Assembly (NCBI GenBank): GCA_045863475.1
Contig: BTUR01000002.1
Span: forward strand, 79,553 to 141,415
DNA: 61,863 nucleotides
Direction of reading: 5' to 3'
Origin: Candidatus Campbellbacteria bacterium
Lineage (GTDB): Bacteria > Patescibacteriota > Minisyncoccia > Phycocordibacterales > EsbW-18
Shown here: in pieces, positions 6,706-60,359 of the stretch
Layout of the letters: the number at the start of each line of letters is the position of its first letter
How positions within the stretch are numbered: the first letter of the stretch is position 1
Position numbers and translations under genes: made by a program
Notes under the pieces: generated by a model
The model's database searches: none
Told to the model about the DNA's origin: nothing
The model's input: only the letters and a program-made list of their open reading frames with translations

Positions 6706-6831
6706 ATGAGTCCCGTTAGAGATTACGGAGCCTCGAGGGATTCTTTGTTTCATCTATGATATACGTATTACTTATTCAAACTAAAAAAGGGAGCAGACGC
6801 TCATTGTCCGCACCCTCTCTAACGGGATGAG
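6706..6831 (+). repeat. Type A start-codon inverted-repeat element, copy A1, at the mreB start
   Basis: Perfect 12-bp IR: TCCCGTTAGAGA (6711-6722) and TCTCTAACGGGA (6816-6827). Direct repeats ATGAG at 6706-6710 and 6827-6831; the right copy is the mreB start. Confidence 0.8.
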
Positions 6832-9662: not shown

Positions 9663-9669
9663 AAAGTGC

Positions 9670-9736
9670 TATACCCCGTGAGATACAGAGCCTCTTAGCT
9701 ACGTGTAGGGTGAAATTAGTTATCTCACGGGGTATA
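9670..9736. repeat. Type B inverted-repeat element, copy B1
   Basis: TATACCCCGTGAGATA (9670-9685) pairs with TATCTCACGGGGTATA (9721-9736): a 16-bp perfect IR with a 35-nt spacer, starting 8 nt after the nth stop. Confidence 0.8.
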
Positions 9737-9750
9737 CTGAATGACGTTAG

Positions 9751-9770: not shown

Positions 9771-9884
9771 ATGAATCCCGTTAGAATTTGATGTTTGTTA
9801 GCGTATAATCGTGACAATCAGTAAAGACCAGTGACTTGTGTAGTAGTAAATAGTAATTACACCTTTAATTTCTAACGGGATGAA
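9771..9884 (+). repeat. Type A start-codon inverted-repeat element, copy A2, at the VKOR-like gene start
   Basis: IR TCCCGTTAGAA (9776-9786) and TTCTAACGGGA (9870-9880). ATGAA at 9771-9775 and 9880-9884. The left ATG opens a 6-codon ORF, MNPVRI. Confidence 0.8.
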
Positions 9885-28019: not shown

Positions 28020-29891
28020 ATGGGAAAAATACTTGGCATTGATCTTGGAACAACAAACTCCGCAATGGCATACGTCCAGGGCGGGGAACCGACCATTATT
28101 GAAAACGCGGAGGGAAACCGCACCACGCCGTCCGTCGTTGCCGTTTCAAAAACAGGCGACCGGCTCGTGGGTCTTATTGCACGCCGCCAGGCGGTCACCA
28201 ACCCGAGTAACACCATTTACGGCATCAAGCGCCTCATGGGACACCGCTTTGAAGAAGACGCCGTCAAAAAAGAGAAGGGTGCCGTGCCGTTTGAAATCGT
28301 GTCTGAGAGCGACGGCGGTGCAGCGGTCAAGATGAATGATAAGGCGTACCGCCCCGAGGAAGTCTCCGCAATGATTTTGGGCAAACTAAAAGCGGACGCG
28401 GAAGCAAAACTCGGCGAGAAAATTACGGAGGCGGTCATCACCGTTCCCGCATACTTCAACGACTCACAGCGCAAGGCAACGAAAGACGCCGGCAAAATCG
28501 CAGGTCTTGATGTGAAGCGCATCATCAATGAGCCAACCGCTGCCGCACTCGCGTACGGTTTCAATAAAAAGAAGAACGAACAGATTGTCGTCTTTGACTT
28601 CGGCGGCGGTACCTTCGACATCTCCGTCTTGGAAGTGGGCGACGACGTTGTTGAGGTGAAGGCAACCGGCGGCGACAGCCACCTCGGCGGCCGTGACATC
28701 GACCAGAAAATCGTCCGCTACATCCTTGATGAGTTCAAGAAAGAGTCGGGTCTTGATATCTCAAAAGATCCGCTCGCCCTCCAGCGTCTCGACGAAGCGG
28801 CCGAAAAAGCGAAGCACGAACTCTCAACAACAACTGATACTGAAGTAAACATTCCGTTTATCGCATCCGATTCTTCGGGTCCGCGCCACCTGCTCGTGAA
28901 AATTACGCGCGCGAAACTTGAGGAAATCACCAAAGAGTTCATTGACCGCGCAATGGAAATCACCAAAAACGTCATTGCCGACTCACCGTTTAAAAAAGAG
29001 GACATTGATGAGGTTATCCTCGTCGGCGGACAAACCCGCATGCCCGCAATTCAGGCGGCTGTGAAAGAATTCTTCGGCAAAGAACCGAACCGCACCATCA
29101 ACCCGGATGAAGTCGTCGCCCTCGGTGCCGCCATTCAGGCAGGTATTCTCCAGGGTGATGTTCGCGACGTGCTTTTGCTTGACGTAACGCCACTCTCACT
29201 TGGTCTTGAAACACTCGGTGGTGTTGCAACGAAGCTCATTGATAAAAACACAACCATTCCGGCGACAAAATCACAGGTATTCTCAACGGCATCTGACAAC
29301 CAGACCTCCGTGGAAATCCACGTCGTGCAGGGAGAGCGTCCGATGGCAGCGGACAACCGCTCTCTGGGCCGCTTTATCCTCGATGGCATTCCGCCGTCCC
29401 CGCGCGGCACCCCGCAAGTTGAAGTGTCATTTGACCTCGATGCAAACGGAATCCTCACCGTCAAAGCAAAAGACAAAACCTCCGGCAAAGAGCAGTCCAT
29501 CAAGATTGAAGGTTCCTCAGCGCTTTCAGAGGACGACATCAACAAGATGAAGCAAGACGCCGAGAAGCACGCCGACGAAGACCGCAAGAAAAAAGAACTC
29601 GCCGACGCGCGCAATCTCGCAGACCAAACAACACTCATTGCAGAGAAAGCACTCCAGGACGCGGGTGACAAAGTTCCGAAAGACCTCGCCGACGCCGTGC
29701 GTGCAAAGGTAGACGACGTAAAGAAAGCAAAAGACGGCACGGACGTAGCCGCTATCAACACCGCCGTGCAAACACTTTCAACTGAGATGCAGAAAATCGG
29801 ACAGCACATGCAGCAAAGCGCTCAGCCGAAAGCAGAAGAAGGTCCGAAAGACGCGGACTTCAAAGAAGAAGGCGACGACAAAAAGGAGTAA
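28020..29891 (+). CDS. dnaK: Chaperone DnaK (Hsp70)
   Basis: [17 protein letters not shown] and VGGQTRMP motifs. Confidence 0.97.
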
Positions 29892-30178
29892 TGAATCCCG
29901 TTAGAGTTCACTCAGGTATGTTTTATGTCTATATACTCCGAAGTCAGAAAACAGATCGAATGTATGTAGGTAGCACAGGAGATTTACGGAAACGTTTAAT
30001 CCAACATAACCAAGGAAAAAGTTACTGGACAAAACGCTACACACCGTGGAAGGTAATATATTACGAAGCGGGTCTAAATGAACAAGATGCACGCGCACGA
30101 GAAAAATACCTTAAATCGGGACCCGGCAAGCGTTTTATCAAGAATAGGATCAAACGTTTCCTAACTCTAACGGGATGA
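29891..30178 (+). CDS. Small GIY-YIG (URI domain, YhbQ/COG2827-like) nuclease
   Basis: FYVYILRS...YVGST.DL.KRL..HN motifs. The core may start at the ATG at 29918. The upstream in-frame ATG (29891) overlaps the dnaK stop (TAATG). The stop TGA overlaps the next ATG (ATGA). Confidence 0.8.
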   Translation: MNPVRVHSGMFYVYILRSQKTDRMYVGSTGDLRKRLIQHNQGKSYWTKRYTPWKVIYYEAGLNEQDARAREKYLKSGPGKRFIKNRIKRFLTLTG

Positions 30179-30179
30179 A
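29891..30179 (+). mobile_element. Type A start-codon inverted-repeat element, copy A3, carrying a GIY-YIG nuclease ORF (candidate autonomous copy)
   Basis: Perfect 13-bp IR: TCCCGTTAGAGTT (29896-29908) and AACTCTAACGGGA (30163-30175). ATGAA at 29891-29895 and 30175-30179. The interior is visibly AT-richer than the flanking dnaK and dnaJ. Confidence 0.6.
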
Positions 30180-30309
30180 AAAACACAGTAAGGTGGGAAA
30201 TAGAGCGGGGAAGCCGGCATACCGGACACCATCCTCGTTCATCGTTCGCAAACGCATCGCGGTACAGTCAAAACAGCAGCTCCGTACCAGAAATACAAAA
30301 CATGTCTAA
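30175..30309 (+). CDS. Candidate 44-aa basic small protein between dnaK and dnaJ
   Basis: [44 protein letters not shown]. Its stop overlaps the dnaJ start (ATGTCTAA). Its ATG is the right-hand duplicated ATGAA of element A3. Confidence 0.35.
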
Positions 30310-31363
30310 GAATTATTACGACATTCTCGGCATCAGCCGCGATGCTTCAAAAGACGACATCAAAAAAGCGTTCCGTACGCTCGCGCACAAATATCACCCC
30401 GACAAAAAAGGCGGTGATGAAGCGAAGTTCAAGGAAATAAACGAAGCGTACACCGTGCTCTCCGATGATTCAAAGCGCGCGGAGTACGACACGTACGGCC
30501 GCACGTTCGACGGAGGCCAGGGTGGCTTCTCCGGATTTGAAGGATTTGACTTCTCGCAGTTCACCAACGCGGGCGGATTCCAATTTGATCTCGGCGATAT
30601 CTTCGGCGACTTTTTCGGCGGCGGCGGACGAGGAAAGGTGCGCCGCGGACGCGACATCTCCATTGACGTCGAGTTGTCATTCAAAGAGTCAATCTTCGGC
30701 ACAGAGCGCAAAGTGCTCATCACCAAAAACTCGGTGTGTGCCACGTGCAAAGGCAGCGGCGCCAAACCGGGAAGCGGTATGGAGAAGTGCACGACCTGCG
30801 ATGGTAAAGGAAAACTAAAGGAAACGAAAACATCACTGTTCGGCACATTCGCAACTGTCACAACCTGCTCACACTGCTTTGGTCGCGGCGAAACACCAAA
30901 AGAACGCTGCGGCAAGTGCCGCGGCGAGGGTATCACGCGTGCGCAACAGGAAGTCCGCGTCGTTATTCCGTCAGGCATTGAAAACGGCGAGATGATTCGC
31001 ATGACGGGCGAGGGCGAAGCCATTCAAAACGGCACCGCAGGCGATTTGTATGTGAAAGTCCACGTGGAACCGCACCCGGTCTTCCGCAAAGAGGGGAATG
31101 ACCTCATCATGAGTCTGCCGATTAAAATCTCCGACGCGCTCACGGGTACCACCGTGCATCTCGAAACACTCGACGGTCGCATTGAACTTTCAATCCCGCA
31201 AGGGACAAAACCCAACGAAGTGTTGCGCCTGAAAGAAAAGGGTGTCCCGTATGGAGAAGGAAAACGCGGCGCACTCTTGGTTCGTGTGACCTTTGCAATG
31301 CCCGAGCGTCTCTCAAAACGCGCTCAGGAACTCATTGAAGAGCTTAAAAAAGAGGGGTTGTAA
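30302..31363 (+). CDS. dnaJ: Chaperone DnaJ
   Basis: J domain (HPDK), a G/F region and four CxxCxGxG repeats. Confidence 0.95.
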
Positions 31364-31393
31364 TCCGCACCAAACCCCTGTAGGATGCCTGCG

Positions 31394-31594
31394 GGGAGGA
31401 TTGGGAGGTAGGGAGGCCCGAACCGGACGCATACGTGGCAAAAGCCGATACGGCCGTCCAGAAAAAAGACCTTGCGCGAGGCATGTACATGTAGACGGCT
31501 GAGTACCTGGTAGAGAGCAGCGACGCCACCGTAGGCGCCGCCCGCCGCGCGACGAATACAAACTACGCTACTCCGCGAAACCCAATCCTCCCCA
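31394..31594 (+). ncRNA. Unclassified structured RNA candidate closed by a 13-bp helix
   Basis: GGGGAGGATTGGG (31394-31406) is perfectly complementary to CCCAATCCTCCCC (31582-31594). The interior has further imperfect pairings giving a rod-like fold. Strand is uncertain. Confidence 0.4.
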
Positions 31595-31676
31595 CACGGG
31601 CCCGACTAAACACCGGGCTCTTTTCTATTGTCAGCGAGCCGCTTTTCATTTCGTGTGGTATCATTTTTTGTACTGG

Positions 31677-31798
31677 TCCCGTTAGAGACTTCTCAGTTTT
31701 GAGCTCGAGTGGGAAGCAGGATACTGTTACGATGTTGAGTAATCTGTTAAAAATCTAATTGGTACGGAAATGTGTTCCATTTCCTATCTCTAACGGGA
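31677..31798 (+). repeat. Type A inverted-repeat element, copy A4 (not at a start codon, no flanking ATG duplication)
   Basis: Perfect 12-bp IR: TCCCGTTAGAGA (31677-31688) and TCTCTAACGGGA (31787-31798). The outer flanks TGGT / ATACCA resemble type B arms. Confidence 0.75.
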
Positions 31799-31821
31799 TA
31801 CCAAAAGAACAAAATGACCGA

Positions 31822-31892
31822 ATGGATCACGTTAGAGGCTAAGACGCATTACCACATACCATGACCAAACCACAAGACTCTAACGTGATGGA
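31822..31892 (+). repeat. Type A-like mini element, copy A8, at the glyQS start
   Basis: Perfect 11-bp IR: TCACGTTAGAG (31827-31837) and CTCTAACGTGA (31878-31888). ATGGA at 31822-31826 and 31888-31892. Confidence 0.65.
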
Positions 31893-46364: not shown

Positions 46365-46416
46365 GACTCTTGTACACATTTGGGAACATGCCCAAAACGC
46401 TTTATACTAAAGGTCT

Positions 46417-46548
46417 ATGAATCCCATTAGAAAGCCGCGGTCGCAACAAATGGGAATCAGCAATTTTAACGAGAATTATCATTACATGGCGATAACCACG
46501 CAGTTCAACGGTTGGTCAGAGACCGCGACCTGCTTCTAACGGGATGAA
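46417..46548 (+). repeat. Type A start-codon inverted-repeat element, copy A5, at the aspS start
   Basis: IR TCCCATTAGAA (46422-46432) and TTCTAACGGGA (46534-46544), 10 of 11 paired. ATGAA at 46417-46421 and 46544-46548. A 40-codon ORF runs from the left ATG to the TAA inside the right IR. Confidence 0.75.
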
Positions 46549-51475: not shown

Positions 51476-51604
51476 ATGAATCCCGTTAGAGATTCTTCAG
51501 TTATGAACTTCGACTTTAGTGCCAAAAAAGATTTTTATTCGGATGCAAGCAAAGGTGCAATAACCACGGAAACGCAAAGCGTTTCCTACCTCTAACAGGA
51601 TGAA
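51476..51604 (+). repeat. Type A start-codon inverted-repeat element, copy A6, at the ftsW start
   Basis: IR TCCCGTTAGAG (51481-51491) and CTCTAACAGGA (51590-51600), 10 of 11 paired. ATGAA at 51476-51480 and 51600-51604. A 39-codon ORF runs from the left ATG to the TAA in the right IR. Confidence 0.75.
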
Positions 51605-52721: not shown

Positions 52722-52793
52722 GGTATACCCCGTGAGATATGGGGTCTTTTTTATGTTGTAGAACCTTTAGTTTTGGTATCTCACGGGGTATAC
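52722..52793. repeat. Type B inverted-repeat element, copy B4, between ftsW and murG
   Basis: GTATACCCCGTGAGATA (52723-52739) pairs with TATCTCACGGGGTATAC (52777-52793): a 17-bp perfect IR. Inside is a terminator-like hairpin, ACCCC..GGGGT plus TCTTTTTTAT. Confidence 0.8.
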
Positions 52794-59044: not shown

Positions 59045-60253
59045 CTATTCAGAGAGAAGTATATCGACCGCCGCATCCAGCTGCGGGTCAACATCATTTT
59101 GAAAATCTTCAACACTGCGGAGAACTTCAACATCCGGCGTTAACCCGCCGTCTGAGATGGAGAGACCGTTTGGCGTGTACCATTTTCCAATAGTGATTTT
59201 GACCGACGTGTTGTTCGCAACCGAAATGAGTTCCTGCACGGAGCCTTTGCCGTACGTCGTCTCCCCTACCAGTACTGCGCGTCCGTGTTCCTGCAATGCA
59301 CCCGCCACAATTTCGGACGCCGATGCGGAGCCGCGATCAACGAGCACGACAACTTCTGTATCTTCCGGAACAAGTTTGTAGCCGAAACTGCGGTAGTCGC
59401 GGTTCTCCCTTCCCTGCTCAAATTTCTCGGACACGACGACTTCACCTTCCGGCAAGAAGTAGCTCGCGATTTCCACCGCAGAACCCAAAATGCCGCCGGG
59501 GTTGCCGCGCAAATCAAAAATGAGTTTGGTACTTCCTGAGGCGACGAACTCTTTGAGCGCGCGGTGCACTTTTTCAGATGACTGTCCGTCAAAGTTGTAC
59601 AACGAGAGTACGAAGATACCGTCGGGACGAAGCTCAGTATCGAGTGTCGGAATATCAATCCGCTCACGCGTAATCGTCATTTCCAAAAATTCATCTTCAC
59701 CCTCGCGCGAAATAGTGAGTGCAACTTTCGTGCCAACATCACCGCGAATGCGGTTCACCGCTTCGTCCACGGAAAGATCCAGCGTTGATTCTTCGTCAAT
59801 TTTGATGATCACATCGCCCGAACGGATACCTGCGCGCTCCGCCGGCGTACCCTTCAGTGGAGAAACGACGACAATCGCGCCTTCTTGCTGACCGATTTCC
59901 ATACCGACACCGCCGAAACTTCCCGCAATCATGTCATTGAAAAATTCAGTTTCTTCTGGCGGCAGGAAAACAGAATACGGGTCATCAAGCGACGCGACGA
60001 GTCCTGAAATTGCGCCCCATACTTTTTCCTGCGGGTCCACGTTATTCGGCTCGTAGTAGCGCTCATTGATGATGTTCCACACTTCCCAGAAGTCAGAAAA
60101 GTCAGCGGGTGTGGACGACGGCGTCTCGGTGTTAATGGCACCCGTCACCAACTCAACAGGGTCAACGGAGTCCTTTCCAATGAGAAAACCGGCGCCAAAC
60201 AGCACCACGCATAACAACAACAGCCCAAATCTTCGTGAAAATCCCCTATTCAT
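59045..60253 (-). CDS. ctpA: Carboxy-terminal processing (S41) peptidase with a PDZ domain
   Basis: PDZ (GIRSGDVIIKID), GNPGG and SASASE motifs. The start was moved to MNRGF at the right boundary of element A7. The 24 upstream codons of the track ORF lie inside the element. Confidence 0.88.
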   Translation of the reverse strand: MNRGFSRRFGLLLLCVVLFGAGFLIGKDSVDPVELVTGAINTETPSSTPADFSDFWEVWNIINERYYEPNNVDPQEKVWGAISGLVASLDDPYSVFLPPEETEFFNDMIAGSFGGVGMEIGQQEGAIVVVSPLKGTPAERAGIRSGDVIIKIDEESTLDLSVDEAVNRIRGDVGTKVALTISREGEDEFLEMTITRERIDIPTLDTELRPDGIFVLSLYNFDGQSSEKVHRALKEFVASGSTKLIFDLRGNPGGILGSAVEIASYFLPEGEVVVSEKFEQGRENRDYRSFGYKLVPEDTEVVVLVDRGSASASEIVAGALQEHGRAVLVGETTYGKGSVQELISVANNTSVKITIGKWYTPNGLSISDGGLTPDVEVLRSVEDFQNDVDPQLDAAVDILLSE

Positions 60254-60359
60254 CCCGTTAGAAATTAAACCCGATGTGTGTAATAAATTCACTCTAATAC
60301 AAAGATTGTGTCCCTTCCCCCACAAAACCCCGTTTAGACGACTTTCTAACGGGATTCAT
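60249..60359 (-). repeat. Type A start-codon inverted-repeat element, copy A7, at the S41 peptidase start (minus strand)
   Basis: Perfect 12-bp IR at 60253-60264 and 60343-60354; the minus strand reads TCCCGTTAGAAA...TTTCTAACGGGA. On the minus strand ATGAA occurs at 60359-60355 and 60253-60249. Confidence 0.8.

Follow-up and report, generated by a model that had tools for sequence, protein, structure and literature searches.

A 278-bp unit with paired ends and a single GIY-YIG nuclease gene, inserted at start codons in Patescibacteria: a candidate mobile element

The window analyzed here is a 61,863-nucleotide (nt) stretch of contig BTUR01000002.1 (positions 79,553 to 141,415) from a Candidatus Campbellbacteria bacterium of the Patescibacteriota (assembly GCA_045863475.1). 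The interval between dnaK and dnaJ in this window holds a unit of 289 nt (29891-30179) that consists of one GIY-YIG nuclease open reading frame (ORF), terminal inverted repeats (IRs) and a duplicated ATGAA pentamer. The element proper measures 278 bp from CCCG to CGGG and is filled completely by the nuclease ORF. Related units are inserted, with target-site duplication and in one orientation, mostly at the start codons of unrelated genes; their sites are polymorphic among relatives, their ends are constrained to pair, the nuclease is under purifying selection, and shorter copies derive from the long ones. We consider it probable, on balance, that the unit is an insertion sequence (IS)-like mobile element that would insert through the action of its own nuclease on its paired ends, with joining by host functions. 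An initial annotation of the window, which had read the unit as the autonomous member of a family with shorter, non-autonomous copies, was largely right.

The unit between dnaK and dnaJ

The junctions in the window read GGAGTAATGAA, then the element, then ATGAAAAAACACAGTAAGGTGGG; coordinates of the individual features are collected in Table 1. As first annotated, the nuclease ORF is in frame with the duplicated ATG at 29891, which overlaps the dnaK stop codon (TAATG), and ends at the TGA of GGGATGA, the ATG of which (30175) opens a 44-codon ORF. The IRs were correctly described as perfect but extend over 14 nt, not 13. A tblastn search with the nuclease gave no second copy in the window, in agreement with the view that this is the sole long copy there. 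Eleven occurrences of the IR motif were counted in the window, compared with 0.29 expected, and none of 100 shuffles reached this number.

A tRNA or tmRNA attachment site was considered as the target of insertion and rejected, given that ARAGORN identified no tRNA or tmRNA gene in the whole window. An Rfam search over the same 62 kb returned no family at gathering thresholds.

Ends, target duplications and orientation across Patescibacteria

To describe the family, we used 80 loci from among 520 relatives of the nuclease in species-representative genomes, almost all of which are labeled Patescibacteria. All 80 copies of the gene are bounded by the same kind of IRs, a point on which the initial annotation had made its reading depend. 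About 73 of the loci carry the core CCCGTTAGAG...CTCTAACGGG, spaced 273-283 bp; the remaining 7 have variant arms that are changed jointly on both sides (CCCGTACGAAAT, CCCGTTAACGTT, CACGTTAATGAT and CCCGTAAGTAG). The units in the window conform to the pattern ATGAA-T-CCCGTTAGAG...CTCTAACGGG-ATGAA, and a pentamer other than ATGAA is altered alike on both sides (ATGAG at mreB, ATGGA at the second glyS copy).

Reconstruction of the insertion sites yielded 51 distinct sites with perfect 5-bp ATGNN repeats and unrelated flanks, the common part being only ATG(A/G)(A/G). Flank repeats that match in all five positions were found for 38 of 76 long units and 17 of 30 short units. The perfect pairs include pentamers other than ATGAA (ATGAG, ATGGA, ATGCA, ATGAC, ATTAA and CTACG) and, because these match on both sides, they represent true target duplication. 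The right-hand copy is the host start codon in 61 of the 76 long units, and in 54 of these, an ORF of 60 codons or more follows (median 281). The nuclease ORF is co-oriented with the ATG...ATG flanks in 38 cases and opposed to them in none. The possibility of an invertible segment was rejected, the orientation of the ORF relative to the flanks being identical in all 74 long units.

By a rough count, the window contains 166 ATGAA sites, of which 12 coincide with called gene starts and 15 lie in intergenic DNA away from any start, some of the latter being the left copies that belong to the elements themselves. A unit occupies 6 of the 12 gene starts. Considering these numbers, the preference for start codons may partly reflect selection against disruptive insertions.

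Three loci contain head-to-tail units that share one ATGA(A) (...CTAACGGGATGAATCCCGTTAGAG...; L018:4991-5010, L025:150-170 and L041:2757-3166), an arrangement implying that one unit inserted into the pentamer duplicated by another already in place. These arrays resemble the mosaic repeat clusters of Neisseria and enterobacteria.

Empty sites and movement between loci

Homologs of DnaJ place the host among the Patescibacteria as a Campbellbacteria-like member. In the closest relative genome (L081, with a DnaJ 81% identical), the dnaK site reads ...GAATAATGAAGCGCCACTCAAAAGTGGG..., that is, the small ORF follows dnaK directly via the TAATG overlap, without the element. The intact empty site is ...GAATAATGAAGCGCCAC..., and this exact match to the state before insertion makes the insertion in the window lineage-specific. 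The spacers between dnaK and dnaJ are 2 nt long in L082 and 6 nt long in L083. Comparison of these spacers had been suggested in the initial annotation, and it shows the site to be polymorphic among relatives. The same holds for other targets: the ATGAA at the ftsW start carries no unit in L083 or L084, nor does the aspS start in L084, and the glyS start is empty in L081 but occupied in L084 and in the window.

The nearest relative of the window element (L012; 74% nucleotide identity and the same rare GTT/AAC arm variant) is located at a different locus of the same genome assembly as L081, where the dnaK site is empty. Two other units that share one genome assembly (L002 and L022) are mutual nearest neighbors with 88.6% nucleotide identity and reside at different sites with different duplications.

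The displaced 44-codon ORF is a real small gene, conserved at the protein level in L081 and L084 and missing in L082 and L083. It is translationally coupled on both sides, to dnaK via TAATG and to dnaJ via a ATGTCTAA overlap. The small ORF has no match in Pfam or NCBIfam, and a degenerate-pattern scan of metagenomes for it, aimed at further relatives of the dnaK site, returned nothing.

Carriage by phages was rejected: IMG/VR contained no relatives of the nuclease, and the GenBank phages yielded a single weak match (36.9%, E = 2e-4). Carriage by plasmids was rejected as well, with no match in the plasmid collection at E <= 1e-5; a relaxed search of this collection was useful only because it holds whole chromosomes of Neisseria and other bacteria.

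Paired ends and an inner helix

Covariation was analyzed in an alignment of 72 long units. In the helix formed by the arms (helix 1, columns 5-18 with 284-297), 99.1% of the cells are paired, and compensatory changes occur at five pairs. An inner helix (helix 5) joins GGAAACGYTT (codons R-K-R-F/L) to AARCGTTTCC (codons K-R-F-L) and is paired in 98.3% of the cells, with compensatory pairs at columns 108/275 (CG 45, UA 20), 109/274 (UA 62, CG 10) and 105/278 (AU 64, GC 6). Those at 108/275 and 105/278 affect third codon positions and are mostly synonymous, and the diversity at third codon positions is 0.18 in the helix columns compared with 0.55 elsewhere. Other predicted helices are only about 50% paired.

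The non-Watson-Crick cells (of 1656) comprise 12 G-T, 8 A-C and 11 others. With no excess of G-T, pairing at the DNA level fits better than mRNA structure. Folding of the single-stranded element gave z-scores of -4.1 and -4.5 for the two strands. As far as sequence comparison goes, the IR stem and the inner helix point to a DNA hairpin.

The nuclease and its start codon

The 95-amino acid (aa) product matches the Pfam GIY-YIG family (PF01541) with E = 1e-16 and 61 bits (cut-off 22.6 bits), and this is the only domain found. A sequence search of solved structures gave 1zg2 (E = 8e-8, UPF0213 type) and Slx1 (E = 5e-4 to 3e-2) as the best matches, with no structure of SsnA (see the comparison with known systems) among the matches. 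Judged by the Pfam hit together with these sequence matches to solved structures, the GIY-YIG fold is settled. In NCBIfam, weak similarity was detected to the group I intron endonucleases of TIGR01453 (E = 1.8e-5, below the curated cut-off). Y14, Y25, G27, R33, R35, H39 and E71 are invariant across 25 aligned proteins; the Tyr, Arg, His and Glu residues in this set are those expected at the active site in this superfamily. Nucleotide diversity at the three positions of codons 10-90 is 0.27/0.19/0.52, a sign of purifying selection at the protein level.

The first residue of the GIY-YIG domain is Met10 (ATG at 29918, MFYVYIL). All 25 aligned proteins have it, and among the 72 aligned units, conservation of its ATG is 90% or higher. 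Leader codons 7-9, by comparison, are equally variable at all three positions (0.66/0.60/0.56), that is, free of coding constraint. Because the leader is unconstrained and Met10 invariant, Met10 is the native start, and the host ATG provides an opportunistic, optional extension. The arms themselves encode the conserved protein termini, MNPVRD and (S/T)LTG followed by the stop codon, which is why most homologs in databases are exactly 95 aa long.

These observations bear on the claim that the ORF uses host translation signals and hands over to the host gene through an ATGA junction. The arrangement is family-wide: in 31 of 40 units, the left ATG and the nuclease ORF share a reading frame (one third would be expected by chance), and 30 of these are also open, and the ORF stops within the right flank in 68 of 74 units (TGA in 58, TAA in 7 and TAG in 3). 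The claim has to be qualified with respect to the start, given the lack of coding constraint in the leader and the conservation of Met10.

Short copies

Seven short copies, 60-121 bp from CCCG to CGGG, were identified in the window. Short copies match the long ones over about 30 nt on the left (CCCGTTAGAGAT...TCAGTTATG) and over about 22 nt on the right (GTTTCCTAxCTCTAACGGG), and one of them (L041:3043-3161) retains coding sequence for residues 1-18 of the nuclease, MFYTYLLQSVKDKRWYTG. The shared ends and the coding remnant support the proposed division into an autonomous copy and non-autonomous derivatives; by this evidence from sequence, the short copies are internal-deletion derivatives that retain both arms. 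For the same reasons, we rejected the alternative that the units are cassettes differing in their interiors.

At least two short subtypes exist, one with a local hairpin (GGAAAyN-loop-NrTTTCC) beside the right arm and the other with extended IRs. The hairpin type corresponds to the long element minus the roughly 160-nt loop of the inner helix, which survives as GGAAAC-loop-GTTTCC. Among hairpin-type copies with perfect duplications, the hairpin lies toward the host ATG in 5 of 5. As copies without an ORF share the orientation bias, selection for nuclease expression cannot be its only cause. The frame from the left ATG to the right arm is open in 5 of 15 short copies compared with 2.1 expected (65 of 2000 shuffles did as well), and the other 10 have early stops. 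Nothing convincing by way of promoters inside the short copies was seen by eye; no scan was run.

At glyS, the N-terminus of the gene has been remodeled (31798-31892). Where relatives have the ancestral start, ATGGC or ATGAC, the window reads ATA, and the 60-bp copy sits on the internal Met9 of the ancestral glyS frame, which now serves as the start. This copy contains an in-frame ATG at 31861 that would give the extension MTKPQDSNV, where relatives have MAKEQNDR or MTKEQNDR. Upstream of the aspS-like gene (46380-46419), a promoter-like TTGGGA-17 nt-TATACT ends 8 nt before the ATG (6 nt in L084), a spacing that suggests leaderless or near-leaderless mRNAs. If the mRNAs are leaderless, an element inserted at the ATG would inherit a 5'-terminal start codon.

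Two further features were noted near the short copies. Between dnaJ and glyS (31365-31665) lies a GC-rich segment of about 300 nt, with no convincing ORF and with complementary ends (GGGGAGGATTGGG / CCCAATCCTCCCC); it aligned poorly with the long glyS upstream spacers of L081 and L084, with no convincing common structure, and Rfam at E <= 1 returned nothing over 31330-31700. A second palindromic family of 57-59 bp, (C/G)TATAC-CCCGTGAGATA...TATCTCACGGG-GTATAC, is represented at 9669-9737 and 52723-52793. It has the CCCGT...ACGGG core in common with the nuclease element but different flanks. One copy immediately follows the ftsW stop, and the other precedes a short derivative of the nuclease element by about 40 bp.

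Table 1. Positions of the nuclease unit, its neighbors and the short copies in the window
Feature	Position	Strand	Remarks
dnaK	28020-29891	+	stop TAATG shares its A with the nuclease-ORF ATG at 29891
Left target-site duplication, ATGAA	29891..29895	+	ATG in frame with the nuclease ORF; single copy in the empty site of L081, TAATGAAG
Left terminal IR arm, ATCCCGTTAGAGTT	29895..29908	+	family core CCCGTTAGAG at 29897-29906
GIY-YIG nuclease gene	29918..30178	+	86 aa from Met10; 95 aa from ATG 29891; stop TGA 30176-30178
Second long-range helix, 5' strand, GGAAACGTTT	29988..29997	+	codons R33-K34-R35-L36
Second long-range helix, 3' strand, AAACGTTTCC	30152..30161	+	codons K88-R89-F90-L91; adjoins the right arm
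Right terminal IR arm, AACTCTAACGGGAT	30163..30176	+	pairs with the left arm over 14 nt, 100% complementarity
Right target-site duplication, ATGAA	30175..30179	+	ATG is the start of the displaced gene; TGA is the nuclease stop
Host small gene, 44 codons, basic peptide	30175..30309	+	start codon is the insertion target; overlaps the dnaJ start at 30302
Short copy, 115 bp	6706..6831 (core 6712-6826)	+	ATGAG duplication at the mreB start codon
Short copy, 103 bp	9771..9884 (core 9777-9879)	+	ATGAA duplication, start of a VKOR-like membrane protein gene
Short copy, 120 bp, hairpin-retaining	31678..31797	+	original glyS start; flanks decayed, ACTGG / ATACC
Short copy, 60 bp	31822..31892 (core 31828-31887)	+	variant arms CACG...CGTG; perfect ATGGA duplication, glyS
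Short copy, 121 bp, extended-IR	46417..46548 (core 46423-46543)	+	ATGAA duplication, start of the aspS-like gene
Short copy, 118 bp, hairpin-retaining	51476..51604 (core 51482-51599)	+	ATGAA duplication, ftsW/rodA start
Short copy, 100 bp	60249..60359 (core 60254-60353)	-	ATGAA duplication, start of an S41 peptidase gene

Proposed mechanism and alternative explanations

In the mechanism that we propose, the arms and the inner helix would pair in single-stranded DNA (ssDNA), at a replication fork or during uptake, and the base of the hairpin would bring the two ATGAA copies together. The nuclease of the element would recognize the paired arms with the flanking TTCAT/ATGAA, much as the Ssn nucleases recognize hairpin repeats, and nick the boundaries, leaving it to host repair and ligation to finish the excision and to insert the element at a new ATGAA in fixed orientation. 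Short copies would be moved in trans. Action of the nuclease on the IR hairpin, already envisaged in the initial annotation, is suggested by the covariation of the arms and by analogy with the published biochemistry of Ssn (PMC11893778). The predicted empty site is ...AAAAAGGAGTAATGAAAAAACACAGTAAGG..., and the predicted circle or head-to-tail junction is ...CTCTAACGGGATGAATCCCGTTAGAG.... At a new target, the nuclease ORF would inherit host initiation signals, either by coupling to an upstream stop or as a leaderless start, and its ATGA end would deliver ribosomes to the start of the host gene. With a start codon as the target, the ATG of the host gene remains intact, which would account for tolerance by the host.

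Several facts weigh against this mechanism. We know of no strand-transfer or rejoining activity among GIY-YIG hydrolases, so that the joining step is unexplained, and of no GIY-YIG enzyme that cuts with a 5-nt stagger. If the nuclease behaved as SsnA of Neisseria does, cleavage would be expected a few nucleotides outside the recognized motif, not at the boundary. Terminal IRs together with a 5-bp duplication are classically the mark of DDE transposases. Flank repeats are imperfect in about half of the long units, and there is a subgroup with inverted, not direct, flanks (TTCAC...GTAAA). Near-identical copies at different loci were not seen among the units compared, the best intragenomic pair being the one at 88.6% identity; activity must accordingly be rare or ancient. 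The occurrence of one nuclease protein of the family on 103 contigs was considered as a set of recent copies at multiple loci and rejected because the neighbors are always the same. Finally, with only a third of the short copies open, translational hand-over cannot explain expression of the host gene at most of them.

The lack of a known joining chemistry among GIY-YIG hydrolases and the DDE-like combination of terminal IRs with a fixed 5-bp duplication would be accounted for if the units were passengers of a conventional transposase encoded elsewhere, with the GIY-YIG gene as cargo or an addiction-type module, and the old, diverged state of the copies also agrees with this. We nevertheless regard it as unlikely. 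At every one of the 80 loci, the long unit has the GIY-YIG gene alone, with the ORF running into both arms, and no larger unit with the same ends was found in about 700 kb of related loci. The 38:0 orientation bias is not expected from a transposase that acts on symmetric terminal repeats, and the complementarity of the arms, maintained despite sequence change, together with the covarying inner helix, fits pairing better than recognition of double-stranded DNA. Improbable, too, is a host-domesticated Ssn-like system that restricts incoming ssDNA or shapes recombination, comparable to NTS/SsnA of Neisseria, with the repeats spread by recombination. Homology to the SsnA homolog of N. gonorrhoeae, the clustering of repeats at essential genes, purifying selection on the protein and the absence of signs of recent bursts are all compatible with domestication. 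On the other side, the nuclease gene changes locus between related genomes, which harbor several diverged copies each; target-site duplications with clean empty sites are the traces of insertion events; and the canonical Ssn repeat motif is absent. Domestication and mobility are not mutually exclusive.

A role of the repeats as mRNA structure that tunes translation of both the nuclease and the host gene downstream, with the DNA spreading by an unrelated route, strikes us as very improbable. The outer helix does pair the region after the start with the stop/next-start region, the right arm has stops in two frames beside the ATG while the third frame is in frame with it, and open short copies exceed expectation. 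However, the G-U and A-C cells (12 and 8) show no excess of the former and both strands seem constrained, most short copies have early stops, Rfam gave no match, and the duplications, empty sites and orientation are left unexplained. We attach next to no probability to a free-standing GIY-YIG homing endonuclease that would spread by cutting the empty allele followed by homologous repair, the repeats being incidental. GIY-YIG homing endonucleases are well-known selfish genes, and there is the weak similarity to TIGR01453, but the protein is only 86-95 aa long and has no DNA-binding domain, viral contigs yielded no relatives, and neither the 5-bp duplications nor the short derivatives fit. The diversity of sites, 51 target loci that share ATGNN only, largely refutes this explanation. 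An IS-like element that moves by means of its own nuclease thus remains the reading we prefer.

Implications

To our knowledge, no bacterial transposon relies on a GIY-YIG nuclease alone, and a literature search found none. If the nuclease drives mobility, it would constitute a new enzyme class of transposase, and an element of 278 bp would be the smallest autonomous mobile element known, setting a new lower size limit. Systems elsewhere that combine Ssn-type nucleases with hairpin repeats would then be transposons or descend from them. The broadest version of this reading, a new class of prokaryotic transposable elements with a hydrolase of about 86 residues as the sole enzyme, the ssDNA hairpin of its own ends as the substrate, start codons as targets, and Ssn systems as transposons or their descendants, appears to us somewhat less likely to be right than wrong. 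There is, however, a realistic chance of a new element class, and these are the first clear transposon signatures for a combination of nuclease and hairpin repeats: the family supplies the evidence missing for the idea that Ssn systems are IS-like, namely target duplications, empty sites, deletion derivatives and covarying ends, and it also offers defined substrates for cleavage.

With half of the ATGAA starts in the window occupied, many gene starts, 5' regions and small "GIY-YIG" ORFs in Patescibacteria may have been misread. Essential genes (mreB, ftsW, glyS and the dnaK operon) are expressed across the insertions. A compact nuclease with a new specificity for ssDNA hairpins may also suit the manipulation of ssDNA.

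Comparison with known systems

A full-text literature search found no description of this element. A study of rRNA insertions in these bacteria reported GIY-YIG ORFs in non-intron insertions, and these may belong to the same family.

Among solved structures, the best matches by sequence are to the UPF0213 proteins (BH0048, EF2693; Bacillus subtilis YazA is of this type) and to Slx1, an enzyme that cuts branched DNA. YazA is encoded by a single-copy gene of housekeeping type between trmNF and rsmI; the published Ssn repeat motif was not found in the stretch checked around it, repeats of other kinds not having been looked for. Unlike the GIY-YIG homing endonucleases (I-TevI, Seg), the nuclease described here has no DNA-binding domain and no single long cognate site. 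The only established transposable elements known to us that use a GIY-YIG domain for integration are the Penelope-like retroelements of eukaryotes. In these, a reverse transcriptase is joined to the domain, the role of which is limited to nicking the target for reverse transcription, whereas the present protein contains neither a polymerase nor any other domain.

With classical ISs and their miniatures, such as the Correia elements of Neisseria, the family shares terminal IRs, a duplication of fixed length, presence/absence polymorphism, and deletion derivatives that outnumber the full copy. It differs from them in the absence of a DDE, DEDD, serine, tyrosine or HUH transposase, with the GIY-YIG nuclease as the sole ORF; in its size of 278 bp for the whole element; in strict orientation on an asymmetric target; and in arms that covary as if paired. 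The hairpin ends, the insertion in one orientation beside a specific target of 4-5 nt, and the short intergenic hairpin derivatives, presumably mobilized in trans, are reminiscent of IS200/IS605 and REP/REPIN-RAYT. The covariation at the DNA level likewise fits a single-stranded intermediate comparable to that of IS200/IS605. IS200/IS605 elements encode a Y1 HUH transposase and have subterminal hairpins, with neither terminal IRs nor a target duplication; here, both of the latter are present, and the enzyme is a GIY-YIG hydrolase, with no HUH protein.

The system most similar in organization is the Ssn family (cd10448; Chenal et al. 2025, Nat Commun, PMC11893778). Its members, GIY-YIG nucleases with a single domain and a length of about 94 aa, cut only ssDNA, beside hairpin repeats (NTS/SRM) that flank their own gene. 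In vitro, cleavage persists when the two halves of the hairpin are on separate strands, and the authors remarked on the insertion sequence-like architecture, leaving the idea open; Patescibacteria are not mentioned in that paper (PMC11893778). Like Ssn, the present system combines a single-domain GIY-YIG protein with a gene bracketed by its own IR motif and with extra motif copies near genes, and the abundance of the motif, with seven further IR-bounded units in 62 kb, is Ssn-like as well. The ends also resemble the Ssn repeat: CGTCAT-CCCCGCG...CGCGGGG-AT in Azospirillum compared with TTTCAT-CCCGTTAGAG...CTCTAACGGG-AT on the bottom strand here.

At the protein level, the nuclease aligns with the SsnA homolog of N. 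gonorrhoeae over 64 of 86 aa with 40.4 bits and 39% identity (hhalign probability 95.9%) and with the Azospirillum Ssn with 42 bits (36-39% identity over about 65 aa for both Ssn proteins), whereas the two Ssn proteins score 107 bits against each other. The match to B. subtilis YazA scores 35 bits, so the nuclease is only slightly closer to Ssn than to YazA. Assignment to Ssn was based on BLASTP similarity to N. meningitidis SsnA (E < 1e-10 against a proteome, at least 75% coverage) or on cd10448 as the top CDD hit; we estimate that 40.4 bits would fall short of 1e-10 in a search of a whole proteome. The canonical Ssn repeat, HGTCWYN(0-2)YYVSBRHN(0-5)WNVSBRGN(0-2)RNCYNB, was tried and rejected as a description of the IRs, with no match in the window and six in the roughly 700 kb of related loci; the controls gave 8 in N. 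gonorrhoeae and 4 in Azospirillum. The N. gonorrhoeae ssnA locus contains 11 dRS3 and 8 SRM matches in 3.2 kb.

The two Ssn loci used for comparison deserve a comment. The N. gonorrhoeae locus (L088, NZ_CP119142.1, 1880219-1883410) belongs to a 2.17-Mb chromosome filed as a plasmid in the plasmid collection, and the upstream ATG of its ssnA homolog is out of frame with the conserved VYILASQRNG..., so that the gene may be frameshifted or have another start. On the Azospirillum lipoferum plasmid AZO_p3 (L090, 255396-255904), a canonical Ssn gene is located between sufB and sufC, with an inverted repeat doublet on each side, and looks like an insertion into the operon.

Unlike in Ssn systems, the gene described here lies within one large hairpin and not between two local ones, and 5-bp duplications, start-codon targets, fixed orientation and empty sites, none of which has been reported for Ssn, are present. 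By this comparison, the units at patescibacterial start codons appear to be a distinct family that probably resembles Ssn in its way of working.

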